Of a stretch of 56,592 nucleotides of DNA, positions 37,157-56,581 are shown piece after piece (positions within the stretch are counted from its first letter, which is position 1; the number at the start of each line of letters is the position of its first letter). The stretch lies in NCBI GenBank assembly GCA_905207515.1, contig CAJLLK010000002.1, positions 1-56,592 on the forward strand, written 5' to 3'. This DNA is from an uncultured Christensenella sp. (GTDB lineage Bacteria > Bacillota > Clostridia > Christensenellales > UBA1242). The translations under genes and the position numbers were made by a program. The notes under the pieces were generated by a model. That model worked only from the letters and a program-made list of their open reading frames with translations, made no database searches and was not told where the DNA came from.

Positions 37157-37918
37157 CTACAAAACAAACGCCGACACAACAGCCGCAACAATCAAATAAA
37201 GTGAAAACCACTTCAAGCTTGATTTTTTAGTCAGTTTTATCATGACTTTTATGGCAAAAATGCCCACCAAAAATGCGGTTATAAACGAAACCGCCATAGC
37301 CAATGCGTCAATTTGAATGACAAGCGAACCTGTTGCAAGCTCAAAAATTTCCATAAGCATAGACAAAATTATGATTGGAATGCTCATCAAAAAAGAAAAT
37401 TTTGCCACTTCCGATTTGTTTTTCCCATTCAAAAGCCCAGCGCTGATTGTGGCTCCAGAGCGAGAAATCCCCGGAAAAACTGCCAGTCCTTGAGCTATTC
37501 CCATGAAAATCGCTGCCTTATAATCCAAATGTCCTTGCGGTTTTTTCTGAGATTTAAGTTCTGCAAAAAACAAAAGAAACGCTGTCACTCCAAAACACAC
37601 CGTCAAAAGCCCGCCAGCAAAACTTTGTTTGACAAGCGGCATCAAAATCAAAACAATGATGCAGGTCGGAATGGTCGCCACAACAAGCATCATGGTCTCT
37701 TTTGAAAACGGATGCCTTATCATCTGCCAAATGTCTCGATAAAACACCACAACGATTGAGAGCAGAGTTGCCACATGCAAAAGAATGCTTATAAACAAAC
37801 TTTCTTCCACGCCAAGAATTTTTGAAAACAACACCAGATGCCCAGAAGATGAAACTGGCAAAAATTCTGTCAACCCTTGAATAAGTCCCAAAAAAAATAA
37901 AGCAAGGATGTTTTGCAT
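37157..37918 (-). CDS. uppP: Undecaprenyl-diphosphate phosphatase
   Basis: 253 aa. GLTEFLPVSSSGHL and PGISRSG motifs. RBS AAGGAG. It lies 53 nt downstream of the giant gene, with no terminator between. Confidence 0.93.
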   Translation of the reverse strand: MQNILALFFLGLIQGLTEFLPVSSSGHLVLFSKILGVEESLFISILLHVATLLSIVVVFYRDIWQMIRHPFSKETMMLVVATIPTCIIVLILMPLVKQSFAGGLLTVCFGVTAFLLFFAELKSQKKPQGHLDYKAAIFMGIAQGLAVFPGISRSGATISAGLLNGKNKSEVAKFSFLMSIPIIILSMLMEIFELATGSLVIQIDALAMAVSFITAFLVGIFAIKVMIKLTKKSSLKWFSLYLIVAAVVSAFVL

Positions 37919-37971: not shown

Positions 37972-40900
37972 CTATTTTTTCGCCAATTCTTCGCGGCGTT
38001 TTTTCTTCTTTTTGTTTGTGTAAATAAGCACAATCAAAAGCACAATCACAACAATCAAAATTGCCACAATCAGATAGACATACCACAAGTTGTCAGTTGA
38101 ATTTGTAAACTGTGCGTAAGCGCCGATAACTCCAAACAGACCGTTATATGAAACCATGTCGTAAGTGTAGGCATTGTGCACTTCAAAAATTCTGTGTCCG
38201 TTGAAATTGAACCTGCCGTTGAAAGCATTTTCGGTTGTTCCGATTGGTGTCCAGAAAAAGTTTTGCAGGTCTATATCATTTGCAAGCACATAGTTGGCAT
38301 CTTTATAATAAGTGCCTGCACTGTTTCTTTCGCCTGAATTGACAAACTTCATCATCAATGTAAGGTCTTCCTGAGTGCTGATGATATAAGGGTTTCGTGA
38401 TGTTCCGCCGCCTTCCAATTCGGTCGTTTGAAGATTTTGTTCTTCCCAGAACTCTCTCTCATATTCAATCGACATCTGAACTGTGCCAACAATGTTTTGT
38501 TCTTCCAAGAAATCTCTTGGCAAAATCAAATTTCCACTTTCGTCCACAAATTGCAAGATGTTTTCAAAGGTGTTTCCATAATTTCTTAAAGTTATGCTTG
38601 AAATGGCATATCTCAAATTTGTGACAAGCTGAATTGTTATGTCAATTCCATAAGCACTTGTCACAACATTTGTTCGGTTGCCGTTGAAAACAACATAACC
38701 CGCAAGTTCTTCGTTGTTTCCGTCAAGCGCATTTGAAACAATTTGAGATTCTTCAAAGGCTTTTGAAACATAGATTGACAAAACTTCATCTTCAAAAGTT
38801 GGAATGATGTCCAAAGTTTGCCCAGCGCAGTCCGCCGAAACAATCATTTCGAAATAATAATAATTTGAAGAATATTCCACAAATGTGATGTCGTCGCGGT
38901 TCCAAGTCACGCCAAAGCCATAGTCAACAGACATGATAAATGTCACTCGGTCGCCGACTTTGATTGCTCCTGTCTGATTTGCATCGCCTGGTGTTTGAAG
39001 CACTGTTTTGATAAAGTCATCTCCACTGAAACTGCCCATGCGAAGAGTGTTGTACCTTCCGTTTCGCGAAACAATTTCAAGCGTCAAAATCTGACCGAAA
39101 GTTGGGTCATAATCTTCAAAGTTGAACACCGCCACTTGACCTTGAACATACATAACCAAATTTATGCTTGAGTTTGCTGTCAACGTCATTGAAGAGTTGA
39201 AGGTCACTTGACCTGTTGAAACATTTCGCCAATACAAAAATGTGTAGCCCTCAGCAGGATGTGCCTGAATTGTAAATTCTTTTGTCGTGTCAACATAGCC
39301 TTGACTTATCAGATCTGCCGCCTGATTGTCTTCGGTTTCTTGAATGATTGTGTAAGTTCCGTCACCGCCATTTACGCTGACGTCAACTTTGGCAAAATAT
39401 ACAATTCGAATGTTGCACTCTACAATTTGGTCAAACTCGTTTGTCGACCACGGCAAATTGTTGTTGTAAGCCACAACATCTGTCAGCCAAACGCCTTGAG
39501 CGGTTCTCTGGCTGATGACAAACTTATAGAATGTATAGCCATTAAATTCTGGAGCTACAAGCGTGACATTTGTGTTGAACGAAACTTCAATGTAAAGTGG
39601 TGCTGTGCCGTAGAACCAAGAATTTGTGTAATCCACACCAGTCACAACATCTTGAGCTGTGTAATTTGCGTTGATGTTTGGCTCAAAGCTGATGTTTATT
39701 CTGGTCTTCCAATATGACCAATAGATATAAAGTGAAATTGTGATTTCGCCAGTCTCTGGGTCGAGTGCGGCGTTTTCAGTCAGTTCATATCTTGAAGTCT
39801 GAGTGTTTAAAGCATAGCCGTTTTCTTGCCAAGCGTTGATCGCTCCACCTTCGGAGTTGATGTATTGCACTCCCGCACCATTTTGACTTGTGAAATAGCC
39901 CGCAAAATAGTGTTCTGCTTTTGGAATTACAACATTCAATCGTCCGTTTGCGTAAGAAATTCGGTCGTCCAAAATTTCAATGTTTGCGCTGTTGTTTTGT
40001 GAGAGATTTAAAAGCGAATCAAATTCAACGTTTTTGATGATAGCAAGCGTCGTGGCATCTTCCATAAGTTTGACATTATATTTTGTCGGTGTGACCACAA
40101 CTTGAATGGCGTTTGTTCCCAAATAGCCGCCCACACTGAATGTTATCATGGCTGTGTAGCCCGTGTTTAAAAGCGAAAGTGAATGATAGGTTATGTCGCC
40201 AACAATCAAATTGTTTTCGTCGATAATCGTCAAGGTCAACGGATCAATGTTGTAGCCCGCTCTGATGAACGCTGTCACTTCAAATTCGCTGTCGGTGTAA
40301 GCCGAAACCAAAACAGATGAATATTCTCGACCAGAAGTCCAAATTTTTCTGCTATTTTCTTCGGAAATATTGAAAGTGAAAGCCCCGCCGTCAACTATTG
40401 CACCATTGTTTGTAAATGAAATGTCAATCAGATTGAGTTGCGGTCTGAAAAGCACTTCAATTTCAAGCTCATCTTGCCCGCCGACAAAGCCGCTGATTTG
40501 ATAGATGGCATATTCGTTTGAAACTTCAACTTGCGTAAGCTCAACATCTGGGCGATTTGCCACAAGACTATAAAATCTATAGCCAGACTTTCGCGCTTCC
40601 ACTCTCAGATAGAAGCTGTCATTTGTGTAAGCCACAACTGTAAAGTTTTTGTTGCTCAAAAGCGCACCGCTTGCGAAAGAATTGTCAGAATAGTGCACTC
40701 TTGTGCCTTCAAGATAGCCAAATTGATTCACCGTTGAGCCATCTTGCGCCTGCATTTGCATCCAGCCGACGTCAACATCTTCTTCTCTGACACCGTCAAT
40801 GTCGATTTTGGTTTCGAAGTTTATCGAGATGTTGTAAGCTTCCACAATCATGAAAAGTGTGGAAGAATTTGGCATGCTAACCAAATCAGAACTTGAAATT

Positions 40901-43900
40901 CTGACATCAACTCTTTGTCCAGACATTGGATTTGTCTGCAAAACGACAACTTCATCGCCATTTCTATACCCATAGCCATAATATCTGAAGCCGTCTGGCA
41001 CCTGGAAAGTTATCGTTTTGCTTGCGCCAAAGTAAAGCTCAATTCCGCTGATTTCTGTATCTCCGTCAAAATAGTGCCCTGTGATTTCGCTGTAAATCGT
41101 TTGAACTCTGTCTGGTTCGCCATATTCATTTCCGACCGTATAATAATTCAGCGTGCCAAGTGAGATATTATATCTTGATTTTGAGAAAATGGCGTAAATT
41201 GTTGCGTCGTCTTCGACTGTGTAAGAATAATCTTGGCTGCTGTCAAAGATGCTTGAGCCATCAGTGCTCCAGCCCGCAAAGCTGTAAGTGCTTTCCATTT
41301 CATAATGCAAAGTCACTGTGCTTCCAAAGTTGGCTTCAACTTGGCTTCCACCACTCACTGTGGCGATGTTTTCTGGAACGTTGACCTGTTCTTGTGCTTC
41401 GTTGTAAGAAATCACTTCAACTCTAATCGTAAACTTCGCCAAAAGTGTTTGAAGAGTGAGCGAACTGTCAGCCGAAACATTTGAAATTGAAACAGTGTAT
41501 GTTCCATCACCGCCTAAAATTGAAACGGCCAAATTGTCGTCGTTTGTGAAGTTTGTTGTGTCAAGTTCATAGCCATGATTCATTGTGACAGTCACTTCAA
41601 GTGTCGAGCCTGTCGCCACAGAAAGTGTGGTCTCTTCCGAAATGTTTGGATAAGTTATTCCACCCGCTTCCAAACTGGAAATTCTGTCATAATGGTCAAA
41701 GCCAAGGCTGACGGTGTTTTGTCTTGCAGTTGATGTGAAAGTTATTAAAAGATCTTTGCTTATGCCTTCAATTTCAATCGCTGTCAAATAGCCGTCATCG
41801 TCCAAAATTTTGTTTATAGTCAAGCCTGTTTCGTCATTAAAAATGACATCGGATGAAATGTGATAGCCGTCTTGCGCTGTGACGTCAATTCTTATCTTTC
41901 TTCCTGTGGCAATTTCAAATGGATTGCCTAAAAGTTCGGTCTCTTCGCCGTTTGTGATGTCAAAAACAGAAAATTCTTTCAAATCGCCACTGATTGTCAC
42001 AGAATTTGTGTTTGCTTCAATCGGCAAAGTGAAGTCAACGTCTTCGCCAGGCATTGTCAAAGTCACTGAAACTGTTCCGTCGCCGTCGTCGTCAGAAACC
42101 GCGAAATAAGCTTCCCAGCCGTCAAGCGAAACTCTGTAACCAGCATTCGGAGCGACATCAAATGTGATGATCGTTCCAAAAAGTTGGTCGTCAGCTGTGT
42201 AAACGCCGTCTGAAGAGTTGAAAGTGATTGAAGCGTTTGAAATAGTGGCGTTTTGTGCCGTCAAACGCAGCCCAAAGCTTGCCAAATTCCATTTTGCGTA
42301 AATGTTTTGCTCTTCTGTTGAGTTCATGGTGGTGGTTCCAGAAACTTGAGTTCCCCAATCGTCGTTGTCAGAGCCGTCACTCGTCCACCAACCGTCAAAA
42401 TCATAGCCCGTGCGCGTTGGATTTTCTTCCCACCCAATCGCCTGAGCGAAGCTGCTGCCATAAGGAACATAAATCGTGGTCACTTTTTCTGCGTCATCTT
42501 CTTGATAGCCATAATACAAGTTCACGCGAATGCCCTGCGCTTCAAAGGTCGGCGTCAATGTCAAAGTGATTGAATTTCCGCTCAGCGAACCAAGCAAAGA
42601 CGAGATTGAGGTCGTGCCAAAATCTTCTTGAGAAACTGTTGTTGAACCAGACGAACCATTTTGCACTCGCCATTCTGCCAAAAACTCTGTCAAATTGTGT
42701 CCAGTTTTTGAAATGGCAAATTCTTCGCCGCTTAAAAGCAAATCAGCCAAGTTCATATAGTTTGTCTGCCAAACATAAGAACCGTTTTGATAGACAAAAT
42801 TTGTCGGAATCGTCAAATCGTCACTTGGCTCAACATTCATGACCACATCGACGTGTTGAACTTCAAATCTCGCGTAGATGACATAGTTTTGATTTAAATT
42901 TGAAATTGTCATTTGGTTTCCGTTGATTACAACCGAGCCAGATGTGGTGTAAATGCTTCCACTGCCGTCATAGAAGCCCAAGAAATAGCAGTGAGCGTTT
43001 GACTCCGCCTGCAAGGTTATTGTTGAGCCATAGTCAAACTGCCCAAGGAAAGCTTCAGTGATTTCTTGCGTTTCGTTGATTGTCACTTTGCCATATTCAG
43101 CTGGTTGATTGTTGTTGTCAACAATGTAAACCTGAATTGATTGTTGAAGTGTCGTCCAGTTTGGCGTGAACGTCACTTGAAGATTGTCGTTTTCTCTGAA
43201 ATAAAGCCCAAACAAGTTTTCTGTGTCGTCGTTTATGAGAGCGTTCAAAAGGTTGACGGTTCTCTCGTTGTTTCCGACTGTGATTGAATAAATTCCGTCT
43301 TGATAGGCGCTTTCAAAATTGATTGCTGCCTTTGCGTTTTCAAGGAAAAGATACTCGGCAGAGCCTTCGCTGACTGCAAAATCCATCGTCCAGTGAGAGA
43401 AGCTTTGACCGACCTGCTGCCCTGGCTTTGCCATCAAACTTGTCGGGAAGTTTCGCGTGGAGGTTGTTCCAGTTGAGTTTGAAGTCAAGTCAGACGAAAC
43501 AAACGGGAAGTTGAGCTGAGAAATCTGTGTCAAACCTGCTCTTTCGACGTTGGACTCCCAAACATCTGTGTCATAATCAAAGACAAGCTCGACATTTATC
43601 GCTTCGATAACACCATACATCCACGGCGAAATTGTGTAGTTTGCGCTGTCGTTTCCGCTCAAAGTGAAATCAACCTGAATTGACTGACCAAGTGTGGCTT
43701 GTGCGTAGTTTGCCGAAGCAACCGAAACATTGTCGCCACCAAGCGTTCCTGAAACGTTGAACAGAAGCTCGTTTTGTTCGTCAAAAATTGTCACGGCTTG
43801 GCTTGCGTCATAAGTTTTTGTGAAAACATCTCTCAAAGGAATGTCTTTTTGTGAAATTGTCAAAGCTTTTGCTGCCACATAAACTCTGGCTGCAGAATAA

Positions 43901-46900
43901 TCGTCAGCTTCAACATTGTTTACAACATATTTTGAAATGACAAAATCATTTGCTATGAAAGTCAAAGCCATTGAATATTCGCCCACTGGCAAATTCCCGC
44001 TTCCAGACATTGTGACGCCAGTTGTGTCAACATTGAGCTCGATGACCATTGATTGCGTGTAAGCATCCAAATTTATGCCAGTGTCTGAAATGTAGCTGAA
44101 TTCAAGATCAATCTCGTCGCCATAAGTGAAATTTTGAGATTGAATGTAAATTGTCAGCCCAGCGCGGTCGATTGCACCTGTGAGAGTAGTGTCTCCACCT
44201 TGCAACTGAAGATTTAAGTGATAGTTATCCACATTGTCTCCACGCAAAGTGGCTTGAAGTGTGTAGCCTGTTCCCGCATATCTAGCAATTTGATCATCTT
44301 CGGTCATAAAACTCAAATCCAAGCCCAAAATGTCTCCGTCCCCAACGCCTGTCAAAATTGCACTGGCATCTTCAAATGAGAATGTTGCATCTTGATTGTC
44401 AAACGTCTTTTTCAAAATGGCATTGCCGGTCGACTGGCTGATTTCCACCGTCAAATTGTCAAGCGTGCCTTCTTTGAAATAGATTTGTTTTGCGGTGATG
44501 TTCAAGATAAAGTTGTATGCTTGATTGAGTTTGCCAAGTCGAACTTCGTTTGTCGAAGATGAAGCATTGTTTGCGTAGATATAATAAGTTCCCACATCTC
44601 TTCCATAGTTCATGAAGAACACGTTTGCGGTCAGATTTTCGACTTGAATGTCAGATTTTGTGTATTTTTCTCCGTCGTAAGTGTAAGCGTTCAAAGCAAA
44701 GCTTCTTCGAGCGGTCGAATTGATCGAACTGGTCAAAACAAGCGAGTTTTGTCCATTTGCTGAAGAAACGCTGATTGTGTCATACAAGAAGCCGTCATAT
44801 TCAAACGAAATTGTCATGCCCTCGCTGTCTGTGGAAAGCTCATCTTTGTCGCTGGCAAGCATATAAAGAATGTCTTGCGCTTTGATAATTCTGAAGAACC
44901 CAGCTGGGCTGTTGTCAGTCACACTGACTGAATAATTTGTGTCAGTTGTCGTGCCAGACAGCACTTGATAATAACCCACTTCACTGCCAGTTTCTCTTGT
45001 CAGAGTAAGCGAAATTTCTTCATAGAGCGGCGTGGTGTAATTATAATCAAATGTGTTTGAAAGTGCATCTTCCGAACCATGTTCAACAGCAAAAATGCCA
45101 TCTTCGCTGAAAACAATGTTCAAATTGTAAGCCAAAACTTCGATATCAGTTGCATCAAAATTTAAGTTGAAATTTGCAGAAATTGAATTTTCTTCGTCAA
45201 GCGAAACCGAATAGCTTCCAGCATACAGATAAGAATTTCCTGAAAATTCAAGCTCTGTGCCGTCCGCTTTTGCAATGCTGAACGCAATCACATATTGCGT
45301 CTGATAAATTGTTGTGCTTGAAGAAATCTCAAACGGAAGAGCCAAATCGTTTCTGATTTCGCCATAAACAAACTCGGTTTTGGTCAAAGTTATTGTGGCA
45401 TCTGCCTTGCTGATTGAACCAGTCGAAGGAGCGTTGGTCAAGCGATAATTTCCGCTGTCTGCGCCCTGCAAGAAGAGCGAAACTGCAATATCTTCGCCCG
45501 CATTTAAACTTTCGTATCTTGCCAAAACTGAAACATTGTCGCCGTCAATCATTCCAGAAAGGTTTGTGATGACTTGCGTCGACGAGCCGTCGTAAGTTTT
45601 TGTGACCGCAAAATTTTGCAAGTTAATTTCAACGGCGTTTATGACAAAATTGTAAGTTTCATAGAAAACAACATTGGCATATTCACTTCCTGAAAGTGTG
45701 GCATTCAACGACAATCTGTAAGTGCCAGCATTTTCCATTGTGCCTGCCGTGCTTGTGAAGAAAATTGATGTGAAAGTCAAACCGCTTGCATCGACACTTT
45801 CTTCGCCAGTGTCAGTTCTTCGATAAAAACTGAATGTGCTTGACAAAGTTGTTTGCATTGAAGAATTTGAAATTGTCAAGCCGTCTTTTGTCGCACTGAA
45901 AACAAATTCTTGAGAGTTGTAATTCTGCGTCAAAATGCTCGTGTCATCAATTCTTACATATAAAATTTCGTTTGAAGCCGTCACTTCAAAAGCACGAGAG
46001 TTTTCAGCCAAAGTGACAGTCACACTGTCGCTAAGGAATGAATTCTCTTTAAGCGTAAGTTCATAGAAGCCAGCCGATGCCTGCGTGCCTGATATCAAAC
46101 CTGTTGGAACAAATTCCAAAACAATCTGGTCGCCAGTGTTTGGAACTGTAAGCGTTTCAGAATAACTTTCTGCAACCGTGTCGCTCTCTGAAATGACAAT
46201 ATAGCCTTGCGACAGTGTTTTTGTGATGTTGAGAGGTGTCACAGAAAACTCTGGCAAAACCAATGTCATGTCAAAATCTTGGAAGGAGCTTTCAGCAACA
46301 AACTTATAGTCTCCAACATAGAGATAGCCATTGCTGTTTGAAGAAACATCTGCACCAGCAGCAGTTTGAAGCGAATACTCAATCGAATAATAGCCATTGA
46401 AAAGCAGCGACGAAACATCTCTTCCGCCCGACATCACTTGCGTTGTTGAAATCAGGTTTTGGAAGTTGTTTATCGAAACATTTCCATAAACATAGCTTGC
46501 AGCCCCAAGCGAAACAGTGTAAGTCGCCGAAAGTTTTGTGATTGTTCCAGTTGCGTTGGTGGACGAAAGTTGATAATTTGAAAGTATCACGCTTTCGTCT
46601 GTCGCGCGCAGAGAAAGTCCAACGCTGATGTTTTCGCCAGCGTGAATGCTCGCAAATGTGGCTTGAACATAGACGCCATTGAAACTTTCTAAATCAATTT
46701 CTTGACCGTCTAAGTCATAATAAACCGTTGCCGAGCCGTCAAATTCTTTTTCGAAAGTGAAAGCAGAAACATCGACCGTTCTTCTTTCGATTTCAAAGCT
46801 GAAACCTTGTTCAAATTCAATCTGTTGGAAATAAGCGTTGTTTGGATTGAAGATTTGATAGGTGTAAACCGCACAATTTGTCGCTGTTTGATATGGTGTC

Positions 46901-49900: not shown

Positions 49901-52900
49901 TAAAACTCTCCGGCATTTTCCACTTGGAAAGAAAGATTGTCGCTATTCGTCATCGCTGTGCTTGAAGTCAAAGTCAAAACAACGCTTGAATTCATCTCTG
50001 TCGGCAAGGTTATTGAAAGCGAATTGTCTGCGACTGAGATTTCATAGCCTGTTGCCGTAAAATTTTCTGAAGTGAAATATTGTGCCAAATAAACCGTCTG
50101 TGGCTGCCCATTGTAAGTGAGATTTTCCAGCATGTTTGAAACAAAACTCAGTGAAACAGCGGCTGGGTCAAAGGCCCACCTTGAATAAATCGTCAGTGCA
50201 GGCGTGCCTGCCAAATTGCAAGTTTGAAGATATTCTGAAAAAACAGTTTCGTCTGTCACTTCAATTTGAGAGTTTCCTGAAACAATATAGAAGCCGTCAA
50301 AAATGTAGCCCTCTCTTTCTAGCGAAATTTCGCTCAAAGCGACCGTTTCTTCGCCGTCAAGAAGGTTTGCAAAAGTGGAATTATATTTGATTTGATAAGT
50401 TTTTTCAGTTTCTTCGATGTTTGCGCTGTTGAAGATTATTTGTATATCAAAAGTGCCGTTTTCCCACATTGCGTGAAGATTTGTGTCGCTTGCAGAAACA
50501 TAATTTCCATTTTCGTCAAACAAATCACTTCCTTCGACCAGCGAGCCGTCACTTTCAAAGATTTTTTCGTAGGTTTCATCTGCCAGCAAAATTCCCCAGC
50601 CCGCCAAATCGTAGCCTGTTCGCGAAATGCTCTGAGCTGTTGGAACATTGCCAACATAGTTGTTGTTGTCAAATTCGGTTCTGACAACCACATAATTCGT
50701 GTCGGTCACACTTGAACTGAACGTGCCGCCGTTGTTTCGGAAAATCAAGTTGAAAGAGCTTGCTCTCCAAAGTCTATAAAGATGCAACTCGTTGTTTAAA
50801 GACGTTCCAAAGTAAGCAATGTTTAAATTGAGTGTCGAAGCGGCAAAACCTCCGAAGTTGACAATGTTCCAAGTCTGACCATAGATGTCGCCCAAAATGT
50901 AGCCCGTTCTGGAAGCAAAATAGTCATTCACAACAATTTGGTTCACTGGTTCTGCGCCATCAATTTCGATGTCTCCACCAAAGCCACTTGTCAAGCTTAT
51001 TGAACTTCCAAAATAGATGCCAGAAAATTTGACTGTGCTGTCTGTTGTTTCTTCTCCAGTTGCACTGAAAACATGCCCATTTTTTTGGTCACCATAGATG
51101 TTTGTTTCGTCACCCGTTCCTGAATGGAAATATACATCTATCTTCTTTTGTCTTATGATTGGCATCAGATAATAAGTTTGTCCGTCATCTGTTTGCCCAG
51201 CCTTGATTTTTTCGTGAAGCGCATCAAATAAATCTATATTTGTATCTTCTACATATATATTTTCATTATAAATATCTTTGATATATTCTCCAGTCGCGTC
51301 AACAAGTGCATAGCCAGCCACATAATAGCCATTTGCGTTTGTGCCAGACATCTCAAAATTCAAGTTTGAAAGCGCGCTGTCTGTCACGCTTGCCGAATTG
51401 TAATAATAATTCACATACGACTCGCCATTTGTTGTGGCGTTTCCGTTTATAGAAAAGTCAAGAGAAAGATTTGTTGCAAAATAGCGATTGTCTTGTCCAC
51501 TTCCGTCTTCATTCAAAAGCAAAACTTGGTCATAAACAAAAACACGAGTTTGTTTACGCTCATAAACAGCATAAATTGTCACCAAAAATCTGTTGTCGCC
51601 AGTTTTGCCCAAGTTTGACAAGTCTTGAACATCGCTCAATGTTCCGAGCTGATTGTTGAGCGCAGAATAAGTCGTTTGATAATCTTGATTTGCGTTTAAA
51701 TAAGTTCCGACTGTCTTTTCTTCGCTGAAAATATCATTTTCTATTGTTTTATAATGTTCAATAACATAATAACCGCCAAAAACATAGCCATTATCTTCGC
51801 CCAAACTTGTCGAAAGCGAGACGCTGTCGCCATATTTCAAATTGTTTTGAGTGATTGCTTGACTGCCATTGACTGCTACGCCGTTGACTGAAAAATTGAT
51901 GTTGCTGCTTGAGTCATCTGAGAACGCCGTGCTGCCTTGCTCATCAACAAAAGCCGTTTTGAATTGAAGAGAATAGTTGACGTCAACAACTTTGATTTTG
52001 ACAGTGTAATGCCCAGGTTTAAGCCCATTTGGTTGCGTTGCTTCTGTGAAAGGAAGCGTCACCAAAAAGGTATCGTTTTGACAGATATCCAAAGGCAAAC
52101 CAAACCCTTCAAGCGTTTGACCTTTTTGATAAACTGTCACTGTCGGCATTGTTGTTGTGGCGCTTTGGCTGTTTTGGAAATAACTTCCACTGTTCAAGTT
52201 GTTGAAATCTGTTTCATAAGCTGAATTTGCAGATGTTGTTTCATCGCTTGATGGGTCGTCAACATTTGTGTTTGAAAATTCCACTTCAACATCGATGTCG
52301 CCCGTGCCGACAGCAAAACTTTCGCCCGTTCTTGTCGGCAAAGCGATTGAACTGCCAAATGCGGCCTTATAAAAATCACTTGCTTCGACCAAAAATTGAA
52401 CTTCGCCGTTTTCGTTAACCGAAATTGAATGGCTGTTTATGTAGATGTTTGGTTCATTTTCAGAATTTAACAAAGTTTCAAAGCCGTTTCCAGTTTCATC
52501 CAAGCCATCAGTGTAAAATTCAAAATCGAAATATGCCATTGTGTAAAAAGTTTGCAGAACAAAATTTCCTGTTTTCTCGGACAAATCATTGAAAACATAG
52601 AGAAGTTTTGTTGGCTTTTCGCTGACTGTTTCCGTGTTGTCGGTCGCACTTTTCAAGATTGTCGGTTGGTCGCCTGTGTAATAATTGTTGAACATCAATG
52701 TGTCTTCGTTTGTGGAAGCCAAAACTGCAAAGTCAGTGAGCACATAATAGTTGAAAACAAATTCGCCGTTTCTTCCCGACTGATAAGAAACCAACATTTC
52801 AGTGTAAGTTATCTCGTCAATCGAAACAAAATCAGCTTGATAGAGAGTTGTCTCTCCAGTTGTCGAGTTATGCTCATAACCATAATAAACATTGTTTTCT

Positions 52901-55900
52901 TGGCCTATTGAATATCTAAAAATCATCTTTGTCACATCATTTTCAGTCACAAAGAAATCTTGCCAGTCTGTGCCGGAATTTATTTCGGTGTCATAATCTG
53001 CGTCACTTGTTATCAACAAGTTGTGTGCAAAATCGAAACCGATATAATCTTTGTCGCTCAAGCTGTCAAAAATTTGGAAACTGCTTGTAGTGTTGTTCCA
53101 AATATGAACCGACGCAAAATCTTCGCTTAAAACTGGCGCAAATGCCCAGTTGACATTTTCACTTATGGTTGTTGTCCAATTGAGATTTTGTCTGACCACG
53201 CTTGCCGAAATCTGATAAACTCCGTCAATCGGATTGAGATTGTAAAAACGAATGTTGCTCAAATCTGACAGTGCAACATTTGACAGTCCACTGCTTGTTG
53301 TGACATCGCCAAAGTTGACATCGACATTTGTTCCTTCAAAACTCAATGCCCCACTCGTGATAAACCCAGTCTGCAATTCCAGCGAAACAGAAATCCAATG
53401 CTGCAGACTGTCGCTAAGTCTTGTGTCAAAACCAAGATTAAGAAGAATGTTCTCTCCTGAAACTTCCAAAACATCGCCAAGAGAATATCCATCTCCATTT
53501 GCATCGTCGATGTCATAAACATTTGTTTCTTCGCTGTTTGCGCCAAAATGTTTTGTTATCGAAATCGCTTTTACTGCCGAAGACAAATCAAAATTACTTG
53601 CAAACTCAGTCGCTCCTTCGCCTTTGGAGAGCTCAATTCTGATTGCTTTGCCCGCCGTTTCAACGCCTTGCCACTTTGCATAATAAGTCGCTGAAGCAGA
53701 AGCAGTTGTTCCGTCTGAAATTATCTCAATGTTTGGCAAATCGCCATTTATGCGAAAGCCGCTTGTTTCGTCAATCGTCTGCCCGTCAACAAAATTTTCA
53801 TTTTCATAGCCATAATAAATGCCTGCCAACTCAAAATCGCCGTCTCTGAGAGGAGTTCCGTCTATGCTTGGACAATTGAAAGCAGTTTCATATTGGCTGA
53901 CAAAAGTGTCGTAGCCCATTTCATAAACTGCAAAGACTTCGCCCGAATTTTCGTTCAAATAAACCGTTCCCGGCTCTGCACTTTCAAACGAAGTGACTGT
54001 CGTATATTTGCTGCTGTCAATCGAGCTGGCAAAATTGTCTTTTTCATACTGGTTGTAAACCACATAAACTCTCACGTCAAGTTCTTGCCACACTGCATAA
54101 AGATTGTGTCTTGAAGTAGAAAGCAAATTTGTCAAGTTTGAGTTTGTTAGTGTCTCGTCGCTGAAAATTGCATTTGTGCTTGTGCCGTCAAATCTATAGC
54201 CCAAAAGATAGAAACCTTCTCGAATGACAACATCACTGTTTCCAAGCTCCGTCGAAAGCCCTGGCAAAAGTGTTTGCCCAAAAGTTGTGTCGATGATTGT
54301 GTTTGAAGTGTCAATCGGAAGAAGCAGCTTGTTTTGATCGTCAATCATAACACTGTAAGTTGAATATAAACTCCTTTCTTTGCTAAAGAAAGTTCCGCTT
54401 CTGCCATCGACAGTGAGCAAGTTTCCAATTGTGACATTGCCTGTCGGCAAATTCAAAGCAACAGGCTCGCCAGACGAGTCAAGATTGTCTTGACCATAAA
54501 CAACAAAAAGCTGCCCAGACACATTTCCAACCGCGTCCAAATCTTCATTGCTGTTGTCGACACAATTGACCAAATAAACATTTCCATTTGCCAAGCCAAC
54601 AAACGAAGCTCTCTCCGTTGTTCCGGCATTGATGAAGTTAAATTCTCCAAGTGTCAGATTTTTGATAACAGCGTTTTGTGCAACTCCAAAAAACGCGTGA
54701 TATGAAAATTGGTCTTGAAGCGAACAAGAAATGCCAGAAATTGTGTAGCCATTCCCGTCAAAAATGCCGGTGAAAGGCAGTGCTGCCGTGCCGATAGGCT
54801 GCCATGTTCTGCCGCCGAGGTCAATGTCGTTTTGAAGTGAAAAATGTTTGTAAGAGCCACCTTGCAACGTCTCATTGTCTCCATAAATCAGGCTTGAATA
54901 ATTGAAAGAAAGCCAACCCAAATCGCCCGCTGTTTGAATTAAGTATGGATTGTTGACCGAGCCGTCGCCTTTGAGCGGAATATCTTCGCTGTAGTCAGTG
55001 TCGTTGTTTGAATTGCCGTAATCATAGACCACTTTGAGATAAGGGAAGCCACCATTTACGCTTGGACTGATTTGCCAAGCACTGTCAGAAAACGTCCATG
55101 TTCCAGAAGCCCAAATATCTTCATCCAAATAAAAGTCTTTTGTCATTGCAAGCGCTGTCAAGTTTTGCATTGCTGTTGTTCCAGAACTTGCAGAATTTGT
55201 GTAATTTGCGTCATAAAAAACATTTGAAATTTCTGTCGGTGTCGAGCCATTGAAAACAGTGGCGCGAGCAGTTCCGCTCACAGAAACGACGCCAACGCTC
55301 AAAAGATTTTGCAGAGCAAACTCACTGAGACTGCTCGGCGAAATATGTCCAACAATTCCGCCAACATAATCTCCTGATTGCAAAGAAGCAGAGGTGTAGC
55401 TTACATCGCCAGAATTGTAAGAAGTTGAGATTTGAACGTAATCATTTCCAGCCAGTCCCACAAGCCCGCCTAAAATGCCAGCATTTGAAGCTATGCTTCC
55501 AGAGTTGTAGGAGTTTGTCACTCGAAAGTTTCTGTTGACATACATTCCGCTCTCTTGACCTTCGGTATAGCCAGCCAAGCCACCGACAACCGCATTAGAA
55601 AAAGATGTTGCCGTCAAATTGCCTTCGTTGAAAGAATAAGTTATTCCTGCACTCTTTGCATAACCTGCAACCCCACCAATTTGAACATCTGTAGAATTTG
55701 TGGAAGCACCTGAAAGCGTGATATCAACATCCGAACGCGAATAAGAAACACTGGCGTTTTCAAGTTTTCCAACCAAACCACCAATTGTGCCTGTTTGTGA
55801 AGCATTTGAAGAATAAGAAATGTCGACATCTCCACTTGCCGAACAACTTTGAAGATATGTCGCATTGTAAGCTGCATCAGAGCCTGTTCCGGAGTTATAC

Positions 55901-56469
55901 AAATATCCGACAATCGAACCAACATTGGTCTCGCTTTCGCCTGCAACATCAATATCCACATTTCGCAAATGAAGATTCGTCACCTTTCCGCTGTCTGCAA
56001 GCGCTCCAAAAAAACCAACCGCTCTGTTGTCAAAGGAAATCATGCCAGAATCGTTAAAAGTTTCACTGCTGTCAATTCTCAAATTGTATATGTAATGCCC
56101 ATTGCCGTCAAAGGTTCCTTGAAAGCCTTGAAGGGTGTTGCCATTATATCCGCCAATCGGAAGCCAGTTGTGCCCAGCAAGGTCAATGTCATTTTCCAAT
56201 CTGATTATCATGTTGCTAAAGTTTCGATAACCGCTCGAATTGTTGACCTGATAAGCAAAATAAGAGAGCCCCTTTGCACTGAAAATAGAAATGGTGTTTC
56301 CGCCAGCAACGTAATAATCACTGTCTGTCACACTCGTAGCATATTCTCCATCCCAAACGCTGGCACCAATGCTTGAGGCGTTTGTTTGAAAGCCGCCAAA
56401 AAAGCCAAGCGTTCCACAAAGGCTAAACACGAAAATCATCAAACTGTAAAATATAGATTTTCTTTTCAT
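37972..56469 (-). CDS. Giant (about 6165 aa) modular, tail-anchored cell-surface adhesin-like protein
   Basis: 18.5-kb ORF with no stop codon. ATG at 56469 is preceded by GGGAGATTTTAC. Signal peptide MKRKSIFYSLMIFVFSLCGTLGFFGGFQTNA/SS. The protein contains GLUG-type repeats, three head modules, InlB-B / Listeria-Bacteroides-type repeats (for example nt 50460-50750 and 42285-42535, ...PTRTGYDFDGWW...IYAKW), MBG (YDG/YG) modules, a C-terminal TM helix and a K/R tail. No LPXTG motif. Confidence 0.9.
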   Translation of the reverse strand: MKRKSIFYSLMIFVFSLCGTLGFFGGFQTNASSIGASVWDGEYATSVTDSDYYVAGGNTISIFSAKGLSYFAYQVNNSSGYRNFSNMIIRLENDIDLAGHNWLPIGGYNGNTLQGFQGTFDGNGHYIYNLRIDSSETFNDSGMISFDNRAVGFFGALADSGKVTNLHLRNVDIDVAGESETNVGSIVGYLYNSGTGSDAAYNATYLQSCSASGDVDISYSSNASQTGTIGGLVGKLENASVSYSRSDVDITLSGASTNSTDVQIGGVAGYAKSAGITYSFNEGNLTATSFSNAVVGGLAGYTEGQESGMYVNRNFRVTNSYNSGSIASNAGILGGLVGLAGNDYVQISTSYNSGDVSYTSASLQSGDYVGGIVGHISPSSLSEFALQNLLSVGVVSVSGTARATVFNGSTPTEISNVFYDANYTNSASSGTTAMQNLTALAMTKDFYLDEDIWASGTWTFSDSAWQISPSVNGGFPYLKVVYDYGNSNNDTDYSEDIPLKGDGSVNNPYLIQTAGDLGWLSFNYSSLIYGDNETLQGGSYKHFSLQNDIDLGGRTWQPIGTAALPFTGIFDGNGYTISGISCSLQDQFSYHAFFGVAQNAVIKNLTLGEFNFINAGTTERASFVGLANGNVYLVNCVDNSNEDLDAVGNVSGQLFVVYGQDNLDSSGEPVALNLPTGNVTIGNLLTVDGRSGTFFSKERSLYSTYSVMIDDQNKLLLPIDTSNTIIDTTFGQTLLPGLSTELGNSDVVIREGFYLLGYRFDGTSTNAIFSDETLTNSNLTNLLSTSRHNLYAVWQELDVRVYVVYNQYEKDNFASSIDSSKYTTVTSFESAEPGTVYLNENSGEVFAVYEMGYDTFVSQYETAFNCPSIDGTPLRDGDFELAGIYYGYENENFVDGQTIDETSGFRINGDLPNIEIISDGTTASASATYYAKWQGVETAGKAIRIELSKGEGATEFASNFDLSSAVKAISITKHFGANSEETNVYDIDDANGDGYSLGDVLEVSGENILLNLGFDTRLSDSLQHWISVSLELQTGFITSGALSFEGTNVDVNFGDVTTSSGLSNVALSDLSNIRFYNLNPIDGVYQISASVVRQNLNWTTTISENVNWAFAPVLSEDFASVHIWNNTTSSFQIFDSLSDKDYIGFDFAHNLLITSDADYDTEINSGTDWQDFFVTENDVTKMIFRYSIGQENNVYYGYEHNSTTGETTLYQADFVSIDEITYTEMLVSYQSGRNGEFVFNYYVLTDFAVLASTNEDTLMFNNYYTGDQPTILKSATDNTETVSEKPTKLLYVFNDLSEKTGNFVLQTFYTMAYFDFEFYTDGLDETGNGFETLLNSENEPNIYINSHSISVNENGEVQFLVEASDFYKAAFGSSIALPTRTGESFAVGTGDIDVEVEFSNTNVDDPSSDETTSANSAYETDFNNLNSGSYFQNSQSATTTMPTVTVYQKGQTLEGFGLPLDICQNDTFLVTLPFTEATQPNGLKPGHYTVKIKVVDVNYSLQFKTAFVDEQGSTAFSDDSSSNINFSVNGVAVNGSQAITQNNLKYGDSVSLSTSLGEDNGYVFGGYYVIEHYKTIENDIFSEEKTVGTYLNANQDYQTTYSALNNQLGTLSDVQDLSNLGKTGDNRFLVTIYAVYERKQTRVFVYDQVLLLNEDGSGQDNRYFATNLSLDFSINGNATTNGESYVNYYYNSASVTDSALSNLNFEMSGTNANGYYVAGYALVDATGEYIKDIYNENIYVEDTNIDLFDALHEKIKAGQTDDGQTYYLMPIIRQKKIDVYFHSGTGDETNIYGDQKNGHVFSATGEETTDSTVKFSGIYFGSSISLTSGFGGDIEIDGAEPVNQIVVNDYFASRTGYILGDIYGQTWNIVNFGGFAASTLNLNIAYFGTSLNNELHLYRLWRASSFNLIFRNNGGTFSSSVTDTNYVVVRTEFDNNNYVGNVPTAQSISRTGYDLAGWGILLADETYEKIFESDGSLVEGSDLFDENGNYVSASDTNLHAMWENGTFDIQIIFNSANIEETEKTYQIKYNSTFANLLDGEETVALSEISLEREGYIFDGFYIVSGNSQIEVTDETVFSEYLQTCNLAGTPALTIYSRWAFDPAAVSLSFVSNMLENLTYNGQPQTVYLAQYFTSENFTATGYEISVADNSLSITLPTEMNSSVVLTLTSSTAMTNSDNLSFQVENAGEFYVTLTIQIQDNATYLNLGTVSSQNYQFGIVVDQSELDFEIDDTARMLSNAKRIIQPFLTSSQWAAADSLNTLSGFASYIKTQDSTATSATDEEIYEFVMVKYYLLLTASTGEEHNTYRTWTYQNYGDYLMENSESVTALLENLTYFAFYDHQTRFNLEVDKAAYNFDLTANENSVSEIEIESLIVYSTSPLQPNGLYQLRMYLQNIDEENGLANYNVLQDGENAYLNAGYVYLLPQVLEIENTGADQSYFEDGSFDHVSIDWFEGISDTIEYDSETFYKIGENLYANANLVTSSIGSQTSDTTYTFFDETNNLYFDNVRIVSQTVYEDGSASYQYVTNRFKLVLDENETFTILKTDGLVNLNFFAKYLTLNENNNAEFGDVDETMAESLLNITRVVYQTEDGSTYEITENLEEKLYTIEGSSGGTINLFEIRANNKNQVSIFVTSLVKELTVSISERDLSEYITFSQWSAEDVYTVSDNLEDNTSVTFSFSYQDDTLTITSDKGDEIVQSTTGVTEIDYNAVWTDLVPVHYDYNLPEDYAIGTVTQLLLKLGTSTVDELIVPSVDGLELSSLTAATQTGSSIDYRDLFAGGTFRGLNVNNPHLPIYLTARWAAMSIEGTANVDVSQPIRMAALTFEEMAASSIYTITNFNDQVYNYTYQWYFEDEPLLTGSTLTLAGNGRYAESGTYKLVITAQLKSKFFSSLDDTAQSESSVEVEFELSFERTKVLEVVFDETQSEYSASAKNPGLTITFQSFDRDTGDFGEEVEQSLFLDSAMFSKEIKLGEQVVDQMRNAGIYTITLSFDSEYYDASSLSSLSFTYTVNPAVVELSPISAEKTFNADEPSLNRTSYLSNEYVQLSFTREAGEDIGEYDIYFNEIVGDIKTNYTFTFGNVTVYENGQLTEAGSSTAVGTFEITKGGTLRLSYATSEILPNALKAPYDENGYTLSLSNGVLQILNGTETYQSLTLNLYDVLNNKYLTTGEAYDLIISMLNSASTNFVNLSTPYQTATNCAVYTYQIFNPNNAYFQQIEFEQGFSFEIERRTVDVSAFTFEKEFDGSATVYYDLDGQEIDLESFNGVYVQATFASIHAGENISVGLSLRATDESVILSNYQLSSTNATGTITKLSATYTVSLGAASYVYGNVSINNFQNLISTTQVMSGGRDVSSLLFNGYYSIEYSLQTAAGADVSSNSNGYLYVGDYKFVAESSFQDFDMTLVLPEFSVTPLNITKTLSQGYIVISESDTVAESYSETLTVPNTGDQIVLEFVPTGLISGTQASAGFYELTLKENSFLSDSVTVTLAENSRAFEVTASNEILYVRIDDTSILTQNYNSQEFVFSATKDGLTISNSSMQTTLSSTFSFYRRTDTGEESVDASGLTFTSIFFTSTAGTMENAGTYRLSLNATLSGSEYANVVFYETYNFVINAVEINLQNFAVTKTYDGSSTQVITNLSGMIDGDNVSVLARYESLNAGEDIAVSLFLQGADSGNYRLTNAPSTGSISKADATITLTKTEFVYGEIRNDLALPFEISSSTTIYQTQYVIAFSIAKADGTELEFSGNSYLYAGSYSVSLDEENSISANFNLNFDATDIEVLAYNLNIVFSEDGIFAVEHGSEDALSNTFDYNYTTPLYEEISLTLTRETGSEVGYYQVLSGTTTDTNYSVSVTDNSPAGFFRIIKAQDILYMLASDKDELSTDSEGMTISFEYDGFLYDTISVSSANGQNSLVLTSSINSTARRSFALNAYTYDGEKYTKSDIQVENLTANVFFMNYGRDVGTYYIYANNASSSTNEVRLGKLNQAYNFILNITAKQIYFKEGTLDNLTVEISQSTGNAILKKTFDNQDATFSFEDASAILTGVGDGDILGLDLSFMTEDDQIARYAGTGYTLQATLRGDNVDNYHLNLQLQGGDTTLTGAIDRAGLTIYIQSQNFTYGDEIDLEFSYISDTGINLDAYTQSMVIELNVDTTGVTMSGSGNLPVGEYSMALTFIANDFVISKYVVNNVEADDYSAARVYVAAKALTISQKDIPLRDVFTKTYDASQAVTIFDEQNELLFNVSGTLGGDNVSVASANYAQATLGQSIQVDFTLSGNDSANYTISPWMYGVIEAINVELVFDYDTDVWESNVERAGLTQISQLNFPFVSSDLTSNSTGTTSTRNFPTSLMAKPGQQVGQSFSHWTMDFAVSEGSAEYLFLENAKAAINFESAYQDGIYSITVGNNERTVNLLNALINDDTENLFGLYFRENDNLQVTFTPNWTTLQQSIQVYIVDNNNQPAEYGKVTINETQEITEAFLGQFDYGSTITLQAESNAHCYFLGFYDGSGSIYTTSGSVVINGNQMTISNLNQNYVIYARFEVQHVDVVMNVEPSDDLTIPTNFVYQNGSYVWQTNYMNLADLLLSGEEFAISKTGHNLTEFLAEWRVQNGSSGSTTVSQEDFGTTSISSLLGSLSGNSITLTLTPTFEAQGIRVNLYYGYQEDDAEKVTTIYVPYGSSFAQAIGWEENPTRTGYDFDGWWTSDGSDNDDWGTQVSGTTTMNSTEEQNIYAKWNLASFGLRLTAQNATISNASITFNSSDGVYTADDQLFGTIITFDVAPNAGYRVSLDGWEAYFAVSDDDGDGTVSVTLTMPGEDVDFTLPIEANTNSVTISGDLKEFSVFDITNGEETELLGNPFEIATGRKIRIDVTAQDGYHISSDVIFNDETGLTINKILDDDGYLTAIEIEGISKDLLITFTSTARQNTVSLGFDHYDRISSLEAGGITYPNISEETTLSVATGSTLEVTVTMNHGYELDTTNFTNDDNLAVSILGGDGTYTVSISNVSADSSLTLQTLLAKFTIRVEVISYNEAQEQVNVPENIATVSGGSQVEANFGSTVTLHYEMESTYSFAGWSTDGSSIFDSSQDYSYTVEDDATIYAIFSKSRYNISLGTLNYYTVGNEYGEPDRVQTIYSEITGHYFDGDTEISGIELYFGASKTITFQVPDGFRYYGYGYRNGDEVVVLQTNPMSGQRVDVRISSSDLVSMPNSSTLFMIVEAYNISINFETKIDIDGVREEDVDVGWMQMQAQDGSTVNQFGYLEGTRVHYSDNSFASGALLSNKNFTVVAYTNDSFYLRVEARKSGYRFYSLVANRPDVELTQVEVSNEYAIYQISGFVGGQDELEIEVLFRPQLNLIDISFTNNGAIVDGGAFTFNISEENSRKIWTSGREYSSVLVSAYTDSEFEVTAFIRAGYNIDPLTLTIIDENNLIVGDITYHSLSLLNTGYTAMITFSVGGYLGTNAIQVVVTPTKYNVKLMEDATTLAIIKNVEFDSLLNLSQNNSANIEILDDRISYANGRLNVVIPKAEHYFAGYFTSQNGAGVQYINSEGGAINAWQENGYALNTQTSRYELTENAALDPETGEITISLYIYWSYWKTRINISFEPNINANYTAQDVVTGVDYTNSWFYGTAPLYIEVSFNTNVTLVAPEFNGYTFYKFVISQRTAQGVWLTDVVAYNNNLPWSTNEFDQIVECNIRIVYFAKVDVSVNGGDGTYTIIQETEDNQAADLISQGYVDTTKEFTIQAHPAEGYTFLYWRNVSTGQVTFNSSMTLTANSSINLVMYVQGQVAVFNFEDYDPTFGQILTLEIVSRNGRYNTLRMGSFSGDDFIKTVLQTPGDANQTGAIKVGDRVTFIMSVDYGFGVTWNRDDITFVEYSSNYYYFEMIVSADCAGQTLDIIPTFEDEVLSIYVSKAFEESQIVSNALDGNNEELAGYVVFNGNRTNVVTSAYGIDITIQLVTNLRYAISSITLRNYGNTFENILQFVDESGNLILPRDFLEEQNIVGTVQMSIEYEREFWEEQNLQTTELEGGGTSRNPYIISTQEDLTLMMKFVNSGERNSAGTYYKDANYVLANDIDLQNFFWTPIGTTENAFNGRFNFNGHRIFEVHNAYTYDMVSYNGLFGVIGAYAQFTNSTDNLWYVYLIVAILIVVIVLLIVLIYTNKKKKKRREELAKK
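38017..38088 (-). other. C-terminal TM anchor of the giant protein
   Basis: LWYVYLIVAILIVVIVLLIVLIYT, followed by the cytoplasmic tail NKKKKKRREELAKK (37975..38016). Confidence 0.8.
38089..38412 (-). other. Head module copy 3, directly adjacent to the membrane anchor
   Basis: GGGTSRNPYIISTQEDLTLMMKF...YVLANDIDLQNFFWTPIGTTENAFNGRFNFNGHRIFEV...GLFGVIG. Checked against nt 38371-38420. Confidence 0.7.
43600..46775 (-). repeat. Array of at least four MBG-type (YDG / YG) modules
   Basis: EKEFDGSATV...SNYQLSSTNATGTITK (~46535-46775). TKTYDGSSTQV...GADSGNYRLT (~45400-45615). KKTFDNQDATF...DNVDNYHLNL (~44195-44420). TKTYDASQAV...NDSANYTISP (~43600-43835). These alternate with ...(V/T)YG(N/E/D)... 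segments. Boundaries are approximate. Confidence 0.6.
54712..54969 (-). other. Head module copy 2
   Basis: NNPYLIQTAGDLGWLSF...FSLQNDIDLGGRTWQPIGTAALPFTGIFDGNGYTISGI. Checked against nt 54901-54960. Confidence 0.7.
55327..56025 (-). repeat. GLUG-motif repeat region (parallel beta-helix-like)
   Basis: G-G-(L/I/V)-(V/A)-G recurs every 30-40 aa: VGFFGAL, GSIVGYL, GGLVGKL, GGVAGYA, GGLAGYT, GGLVGLA, GGIVGHI. The region ends with the typical W..SPSVNGGFPYL. Confidence 0.7.
56077..56334 (-). other. Head module copy 1
   Basis: ...IIRLENDIDLAGHNWLPIGGYNGNTLQGFQGTFDGNGHYIYNLRI. Confidence 0.7.
56377..56469 (-). other. Sec signal peptide of the giant protein
   Basis: Basic n-region MKRKS, a 22-aa hydrophobic core, and a T-N-A/SS cleavage-like site. 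FSLC is not a canonical lipobox. Confidence 0.7.
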
Positions 56470-56552
56470 GTAAAATCTCCCATTTTGAAATTGAAGACCT
56501 TTTCTTTGCAAGATAATAAAAGCCGAAAAATCGCAGAAAATTTCTTATAACA

Positions 56553-56581
56553 ATTATACAAGAAATACGTTTTTTTAGCAA
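56553..56581 (-). promoter_or_regulatory. SigA-type promoter of the giant gene
   Basis: Minus strand TTGCTA (56576..56581), 17-nt spacer, TATAAT (56553..56558). The predicted 5' UTR is about 75 nt. Confidence 0.6.

Follow-up and report, generated by a model that had tools for sequence, protein, structure and literature searches.

A 6165-residue putative type I membrane-anchored surface protein kept at one locus in a lineage of uncultured gut Clostridia

The window analysed here is the complete 56,592-bp contig CAJLLK010000002.1, from a human-gut assembly of an uncultured Christensenella sp., and a third of it is taken up by a single minus-strand gene for a protein of 6165 residues, hereafter the giant protein. 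We consider, at a probability of roughly 0.6, that this protein forms a giant surface fibre with a type I membrane anchor, encoded by a gene that is native to an uncultured human-gut Clostridia species and was inherited vertically. An earlier reading of the sequence, referred to as the original prediction, had proposed that one genuine gene, set in housekeeping surroundings, encodes a giant protein which is secreted and held at the surface by a membrane anchor, and our data agree with it. The protein belongs to an undescribed orthologous family within a known kind, the giant surface proteins; its unusual traits are that it is encoded by a fixed-length syntenic core gene and has a largely non-repetitive stalk without recognisable family.

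The listing of open reading frames (ORFs) in the window gave one minus-strand frame at 37972..56511, comprising 6179 aa when counted from a TTG. Translation from the first ATG, at 56469, yields 6165 aa with 0 internal stops. Since the probability that 6179 codons remain free of stops by chance at 41% GC is ~e^-390, the ORF is not a chance frame. The intact ORF has the coordinates given in the original prediction, and the promoter-like site and ribosome-binding site described there are present:

37972..56469, minus strand: coding sequence of the giant protein, 6165 aa plus stop codon (ORF list, translation).
56477..56481, minus strand: putative ribosome-binding site GGGAG, 7 nt ahead of the ATG (read from the sequence).
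56553..56581, minus strand: promoter-like site TTGCTA-17 nt-TATAAT, ~84 nt 5' of the ATG (consensus scan, 10/12 matches, as a pattern only).

Codon usage of the giant gene was native, as compared with 21 housekeeping genes of the window (relative synonymous codon usage, r=0.94), and its GC content at third codon positions was 0.407 against 0.400 in the housekeeping genes.

To find orthologues, we scanned species-representative genomes with uppP, the gene that lies next downstream of the giant gene, and obtained 13 loci, all from metagenome-assembled genomes (MAGs) named 'Clostridia bacterium' from the gut of human, water deer and rabbit. At 9 of the 13 loci, the whole 10 kb upstream of uppP was one open frame running off the locus. 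These nine frames were colinear with aa ~2860-6132 of the giant protein at 30-40% identity, with a length difference of ~1%, and they ended in a transmembrane (TM) helix with a basic tail, as in the giant protein. Conservation across the nine peaked at 50-57% in aa 5500-5700 and was also high in aa 6001-6165. A metagenome scan seeded with the N-terminal module retrieved a further locus, L022, on a 258-kb contig, whose ORF starts MKRKSIFFTLFVLIFGFCGTL and aligns colinearly, with 34% identity, to aa 1-4030; typA, dnaB, gltX and a trpS/tyrS-like gene lie upstream of it. Because the two sets of orthologues overlap by ~1170 residues, the full architecture is confirmed by independent assemblies, and the conservation in related genomes that the original prediction had proposed to look for was thus found in L022 and nine gut Clostridia MAGs. 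Protein fragments P0001-P0009 represent further orthologues, and a genome scan for 8-mer patterns of aa 2600-3600 returned no relatives. The two protein collections searched returned none of the full-length orthologues encoded in L009-L018 and L022, and the longest protein-database match listed was 2375 aa; 'no match' in these collections therefore means none among shorter proteins and fragments. Taken together, gene order and sequence indicate that the lineage has inherited the gene vertically and keeps it as a syntenic core gene, at the same locus in at least 10 related species. Recent horizontal transfer was rejected in view of the native codon usage and the conserved synteny.

The topology signals of the giant protein lie at its two ends, and the Sec signal peptide, the C-terminal helix with a K/R tail and the lack of LPXTG claimed earlier were all borne out by the sequence and its orthologues:

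56377..56469, minus strand: Sec signal peptide, aa 1-31, with MKRK, a long hydrophobic stretch and predicted cleavage between T-N-A and S (sequence).
38020..38088, minus strand: C-terminal transmembrane helix of 23 residues, aa 6128-6150, LWYVYLIVAILIVVIVLLIVLIY (sequence).
37975..38019, minus strand: cytoplasmic tail of 15 residues, aa 6151-6165, TNKKKKKRREELAKK (alignment of 16 C-termini).

The N-terminus reads MKRKSIFYSLMIFVFSLCGTLGFFGGFQTNA/SS, the slash marking the predicted cut, and carries a T-x-A/V-x-A cleavage motif kept in orthologues; L022, P0008 and P0009 have this N-terminus and the T/V-x-A motif in common. A cysteine inside the hydrophobic core of the signal peptide, Cys18 (C-G-T-L; 56416-56418), is kept in the giant protein, L022, P0008 and P0009, and the Gly19 that follows it is replaced by Thr in P0009. 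A lipoprotein reading of Cys18 was rejected, as position -1 is L or F and there is no canonical lipobox. At the other end, the helix start W-Y-V-Y-L and the hydrophobic length are kept in 15 orthologous C-termini, and the basic cluster of the tail and its R-E-E/K-L-A/S-K motif are conserved in the alignment of 16. No sortase motif (LPXTG, SPKTG, NPQTN or LAXTG) was found in the last 70 residues of the giant protein or the 15 orthologous C-termini; its sole LPFTG lies at aa 564, within a head module, and the protein accordingly lacks the C-terminal sorting motif of sortase-anchored LPXTG adhesins (MSCRAMM-type).

The label 'tail-anchored' in the original prediction has to be replaced. Because the protein has an N-terminal signal peptide that is probably cleaved, it would be a single-pass protein of type I, and extracellular module types are carried by the bulk of the chain, which a strictly tail-anchored protein would keep in the cytoplasm. 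The order of signal, giant ectodomain, TM helix and positive tail is that of the Ebh-like type I anchored giants. Nor does the anchoring mode point to unusual biology, as had been supposed: Ebh (PMC6548404) and the two other large ORFs of the window are anchored likewise, and since both of these ORFs end alike, TM anchoring appears as a habit of the organism rather than a peculiarity of this gene. The ectodomain of ~6100 residues is uniformly acidic, with a net charge of -522. We propose that the precursor would be exported via Sec and its signal peptide cut after T-N-A, and that the C-terminal helix and basic tail would act, following the positive-inside rule, as a stop-transfer anchor that leaves 15 residues in the cytoplasm. 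The ectodomain would then span the wall and beyond as a chain of mostly beta-rich modules; roughly 60 modules of ~4 nm each would make a fibre of ~200 nm. At its distal end, a GLUG right-handed beta-helix followed by a shorter one would form the most likely ligand-binding tip, and the fibre would most likely help the cell to attach to, or keep at a distance from, glycan-rich particles, mucus, immunoglobulin or other cells in the gut.

The tip consists of two modules:

55030..56334, minus strand: first GLUG right-handed beta-helix, aa 46-480 (Pfam Glug, AlphaFold2, Foldseek).
54490..54978, minus strand: second, shorter head/beta-helix module, aa 498-660 (self-BLAST, hhalign, AlphaFold2).

The first helix has a cap, or head, of the form NPY..DL..DIDL..W.PIG..F.G.FDGNGH.I, rungs of the form (V/I)GG(L/I)VG and a C-terminal cap TKDFY...W...GFPYL. 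In the second head module, aa 501-600 are 56% identical to L022. A profile of aa 1-1300 retrieved 1633 proteins from many phyla at E<=1e-5, all of them matching aa ~40-650 and most carrying PF07581 (Glug) and PF05342 (Peptidase_M26_N). An AlphaFold2 model of aa 30-660, built on a 24-row alignment, reached a predicted local distance difference test (pLDDT) value of 80-95 in most 10-residue blocks, and the model and its Foldseek matches show a right-handed parallel beta-helix. Foldseek related the model at probability 1.0 to 3n6z (BACOVA_03286, 'putative IgA1 protease'; TM-score 0.56 on the target) and, also at probability 1.0, to the NTD2 of the S. pneumoniae and G. haemolysans IgA1 metalloproteases (6xja, 7uvl, 7uvk); matches to lyases, tailspikes, the PfbA adhesin and Ag43 were weaker. 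The tip is, as modelled, a GLUG right-handed beta-helix. An H[ED]xxH or HxxEH motif occurs 0 times in the 6165 residues, and Pfam and NCBIfam recorded neither Peptidase_M26_C nor any other catalytic family; the NCBIfam ZmpA match was weak, at 17.7 bits against a cut-off of 3000. The protein thus has neither the HEXXH motif nor the catalytic region of the M26 IgA1 metalloproteases, and in IgA1 proteases catalysis is not the task of the beta-helix, which serves as a gating scaffold (PMC9637739). For these reasons, a binding module is the best reading of the tip. Contigs L023-L027, from human-gut and other metagenomes, also contained giant ORFs (at least 2975-3915 aa) opening with a GLUG head module, one of them (L024) with a second head near aa 480-630. 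Beyond the head modules, no similarity to the giant protein was detectable in L023-L027, and a GLUG head on a giant protein seems to be a design that recurs among gut bacteria.

Behind the tip, the remaining ectodomain was divided as follows, with the Pfam matches given by residue:

47530..54489, minus strand: stretch without family, aa 661-2980 (Pfam, NCBIfam, PDB and phmmer negatives).
43570..47529, minus strand: MBG/YDG super-repeat region, aa 2981-4300 (Pfam, iterated hidden Markov models (HMMs), hhalign self-scan).
38431..43569, minus strand: membrane-proximal stalk with Flg_new/Flg_new_2 modules, aa 4301-6013 (Pfam, TIGR02543, hhalign).
38095..38430, minus strand: third, truncated head module abutting the membrane helix, aa 6014-6125 (self-BLAST, HMM, hhalign).
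aa 227-251: Glug (22.6-29.8 bits, cut-off 20.5).
aa 3022-3080 and 3810-3853: MBG_2, PF18676 (17-20 bits, below the cut-off of 25).
aa 3621-3679 and 4213-4281: YDG, PF18657 (54.3 bits, cut-off 25).
aa 4667-4726: Flg_new, PF09479 (26.7 bits against a cut-off of 27, borderline).
aa ~4753-4813, 5034-5097 and 5724-5767: Flg_new_2, PF18998 (33.6 bits, cut-off 23.6).

Pfam covered ~8% of the length, by a whole-protein search and also by ten tiles at E<=1, and NCBIfam added solely the Listeria-Bacteroides repeat TIGR02543 (28.3 bits against a cut-off of 20.95). Glug and YDG thus score above their gathering cut-offs and MBG_2 below it, and the Listeria-Bacteroides/InlB B-repeat is present in 2-6 copies, depending on the threshold. 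All the GLUG, InlB-B/Flg_new and MBG/YDG modules named in the original prediction were found, though sparse. That known adhesin families might span the whole protein, which would have spoken against that prediction, is not the case, as the Pfam and NCBIfam profiles of characterised adhesin families leave most of the length uncovered. The repeats were mapped by iterated HMMs and an hhalign scan of tiles against the whole protein, using orthologue alignments. Head modules were located at aa 46-146, 498-597 and 6014-6125, and GLUG rungs at aa 206-374. The super-repeat region has a period of ~385 aa, with four YDG-type and two to four MBG-type modules; the iterated HMMs placed YDG at aa 3235-3319, 3618-3695, 4017-4109 and 4215-4297, and counted 4 YDG copies in each of the nine orthologues. 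MBG_2 was found at the corresponding place in L022 and, by iterated HMM, in 9/9 orthologues. In the membrane-proximal stalk, hhalign detected repeats of ~96 aa within aa 4770-5072, and no family matched most of aa 4300-6000. The truncated head module matches aa 498-597 at E values of 1e-10 to 1e-13 and is present in 9/9 orthologues. To our knowledge, no known layout of a GLUG protein explains a partial beta-helix at the membrane-proximal end.

The original prediction had also singled out a long stretch of the ectodomain in which no family could be recognised. Such a stretch exists, but its extent is larger than stated, namely aa ~661-2980 and most of aa 4300-6000. Within aa ~661-2980, no Pfam or NCBIfam family was found in either the giant protein or L022, no relative was found in the PDB by single sequence or by orthologue profile, and neither of the window's other giant ORFs matched this region. 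An hhalign self-scan showed no internal repeats in this region, save weak Flg_new-like motifs at aa 757-805, 1931-2012 and 2006-2098. When aa 640-1839 were compared by exhaustive phmmer search with 1.84 billion representative proteins, the only match was P0007, itself an N-terminal orthologue fragment colinear with aa 272-761. A word-indexed search with aa 601-2100 gave no match, and tile profiles of the region matched none of the 127 proteins retrieved. L022 matches the region colinearly, with 20-46% identity in each 100-residue stretch, and because of this conservation and colinearity we consider the region to be under constraint. A single-sequence AlphaFold2 run on aa 1700-2899 gave a mean pLDDT of 33.6 and no usable fold; there is no more than a hint of a helical insert near aa 2230-2330.

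Several known systems resemble parts of this protein. The staphylococcal Ebh/Embp proteins are likewise giant (~1 MDa), chromosomally encoded Gram-positive surface proteins with an N-terminal secretion signal; a C-terminal TM segment and cytoplasmic tail replace LPXTG (PMC6548404), and length matters for function. They are a precedent for a giant Gram-positive surface protein held in this way, and the likeness is one of architecture only, without sequence similarity. Ebh/Embp are built of many near-identical alpha-helical repeats, in Embp F- and FG-repeats of alpha-helical bundles (PMC7587433), whereas the giant protein is beta-rich and largely non-repetitive; it also differs in its beta-helix tip and in a cytoplasmic tail of only 15 residues. 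To the GLUG/Peptidase_M26_N proteins (PF07581, PF05342), it is related in sequence: aa 46-660 are homologous to more than 1600 of them, with NPY.I..DL, DIDL, W.PIG, F.G.FDGNGH.I and GG(L/I)VG rungs as common motifs. However, only the tip is common to both, the M26 catalytic region and HExxH are missing, and the homologues listed have at most ~2400 aa, as compared with 6165 aa. The stalk contains the same module types as the Listeria-Bacteroides/MBG/YDG multi-module surface proteins, but the modules make up ~8% of the giant protein by Pfam, are 21-35% identical to one another and leave most of the stalk unmatched. Giant1-5 of Apilactobacillus kunkeei are extracellular proteins of 3000-8000 aa with an N-terminal beta-solenoid and a long stalk, encoded by several giant genes near each other in a small-genome, host-associated Firmicute (PMC12863079). 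In contrast to the protein studied here, they have no predicted TM domain and are thought to attach via a C-terminal SH3b-like domain (PMC12863079); no sequence relationship to Giant1-5 was detected. Size by itself, which the original prediction had counted among the pointers to undescribed biology, is not a new feature, since surface proteins are already the second main class, after nonribosomal peptide synthetases and polyketide synthases, among bacterial proteins of more than 5000 aa (PMC11573180). We found no evidence for a new mechanism.

The preferred reading as a membrane-anchored surface fibre is supported by the surface-protein modules Flg_new, Flg_new_2, MBG_2 and YDG in the stalk, and Listeria-Bacteroides repeats are counted as adhesion factors of gut-associated microbes (PMC7883539). 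The data establish gene integrity, the topology signals, orthology with synteny and the tip fold; the fibre shape and the binding function are our inference. Several observations weigh against this reading. In typical adhesins, the number of repeats and the presence or absence of the gene vary between strains, unlike this fixed-length syntenic core gene with a largely non-repetitive stalk, and fixed length and synteny suit a structural part in the envelope no less well than adhesion. The best conservation is membrane-proximal (aa 5500-5700 and 6001-6165), not at the tip; the truncated beta-helix head beside the membrane is left unexplained by a fibre model; and a non-structural domain could be hidden within aa 661-2980. 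The main rival is an Ebh-like envelope scaffold or steric shield, which would serve spacing, integrity or masking and whose length would be the functional property. Such a role is possible, though we would not bet on it. It would suit a core gene in fixed synteny beside uppP (envelope lipid carrier recycling) with no terminator in between, the retention of length within ~1% with domain-by-domain orthology at 30-40% identity, the peak of conservation near the membrane and the uniformly acidic ectodomain. Fixed length, domain-by-domain orthology and membrane-side conservation do favour an Ebh-type structural role over a classic variable adhesin. However, binding proteins typically carry such modules as the distal GLUG beta-helix, Flg_new and MBG, the position beside uppP is the sole link to wall synthesis, and neither sequence similarity to Ebh nor a PDB or family match of that kind was found. 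We judge it rather unlikely that aa 661-2980, which is specific to the orthologue group, holds unseen folds or an activity instead of plain Ig-like spacers and, with the fixed length, the synteny and the truncated head, marks a new class of length-calibrated envelope fibres in one uncultured gut Clostridia lineage.

An enzyme tethered to the surface, with the tip or a domain in aa 661-2980 acting for example as an IgA- or mucin-directed protease or a polysaccharide lyase or hydrolase, seems improbable to us. The match of the tip to the NTD2 of IgA1 metalloproteases and, more weakly, to PL6 alginate lyases, tailspikes and pectin-active beta-helices is in line with such an enzyme, as are the many tip homologues that carry Peptidase_M26_N, the weak ZmpA match and the ~2300 residues of unassigned sequence. 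The lyase and tailspike matches are weak, however, with TM-scores of 0.1-0.2, and the missing HExxH and HxxEH motifs, the lack of Peptidase_M26_C or any catalytic family and the non-catalytic nature of the beta-helix in IgA1 proteases, as noted above, all argue against it. A toxin-delivery reading was rejected because the C-terminus is a conserved membrane anchor: in place of the variable toxin domain and adjoining immunity gene of polymorphic toxin or contact-dependent inhibition giants, the protein ends in the conserved TM helix and tail, and the next gene is uppP. Very improbable indeed is an assembly artefact, that is, a chimera or decaying pseudogene whose frame was pieced together from separate genes or from repeats that had collapsed. 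The window, a whole contig of short-read style, has both ends at giant genes, no independent assembly of the same species spanning the whole gene was retrieved, and four of four conspecific assemblies (L005-L008), 99.85-99.9% identical over the C-terminal 2.8-5 kb, end inside the giant gene, at window positions 40788, 41817, 42866 and 43006. But neither tandem repeats nor dispersed DNA repeats of more than 40 nt occur in the gene, and identity among its internal protein repeats is just 21-35%; because there is no such DNA repeat, collapse is implausible. Strain differences are 4-10x denser in the giant gene (2.0-3.9 per kb) than in the flanking housekeeping genes (0.4-0.6 per kb), and the single-nucleotide polymorphisms (SNPs) are mostly synonymous and clustered, at 40627-40674, 40721-40741 and 42955-42988, the last cluster adjoining the contig end of L005 (43006). 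This clustering suggests recombination tracts between strains, and we read the contig breaks, which coincide with clustered SNPs, as probably stemming from strain heterogeneity, not from repeats. The 6165 codons with zero stops, the native codon usage and the end-to-end colinearity with L022 and the nine MAGs, which were assembled independently and overlap by ~1170 aa, also speak against an artefact, and the check for chimera or collapse that the original prediction had called for thus showed no sign of either.

The gene neighbourhood is one of housekeeping functions. Downstream of the giant gene lie uppP, a P-type Ca-ATPase gene, holB, PSP1/yaaT, a methyltransferase gene, tatD and ksgA and, farther on, pgk, tpi, dnaX and argS. 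Pfam identification of the neighbours confirmed the earlier description of uppP, the Ca-ATPase gene and holB downstream without mobile-element genes, none of which were found near the giant gene. Rfam and tRNA scans found no RNA genes in the window. The other features of note are:

37157..37918, minus strand: uppP (BacA), 53 nt downstream of the giant gene on the same strand (Pfam BacA, E=5e-64).
1-8253, plus strand: second giant ORF, at least 2740 aa, open to base 1 and N-terminally truncated by the contig start (ORF listing).
8310-12581, minus strand: third large surface protein, 1423 aa, with a signal peptide (weak Big_13 and HYR matches).
26404-27702, minus strand: 432-aa protein whose C-terminal half is K/E/A-rich and of low complexity, without Pfam match, amid housekeeping genes.
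19174-20277, minus strand: dnaX, 367 aa, clamp-loader domains I-III without a tau extension.

No terminator-like site was found in the 53-nt gap between the giant gene and uppP, and the two may be co-transcribed. The second giant ORF has no Pfam match and ends in a TM helix with a KLRKRIAVK tail; the 1423-aa protein likewise ends in a TM helix with a K-rich tail. The three large ORFs make up 55% of the contig, and no similarity among them was detected. The contig starts within one giant gene and ends ~120 nt upstream of the 6165-aa gene, and it seems to be at giant genes that short-read assemblies of this organism break up. At the position matching 26404-27702, the conspecific contigs L005 and L007 carry a gene of equal length, which there runs off the locus end, and the length of dnaX, 367 aa, is identical in all related contigs.

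Short-read assemblies break in this gene and the databases searched returned none of its full-length orthologues, which together make a blind spot; for these two reasons, such families would be largely invisible to routine annotation. If aa 661-2980 did hold new folds or an activity, the family would be a source of new domain families; if the region is plain stalk, the protein would be one more giant adhesin-like fibre. The lineage, represented by human, rabbit and deer gut MAGs, commits 18.5 kb to one surface protein and has kept it in place across species. Given the size of the gene, the 55% of the contig that giant genes occupy and the retention of the locus, the giant protein is a likely major determinant of the contact of these cells with their surroundings, be it mucus, IgA, particles or neighbouring cells.

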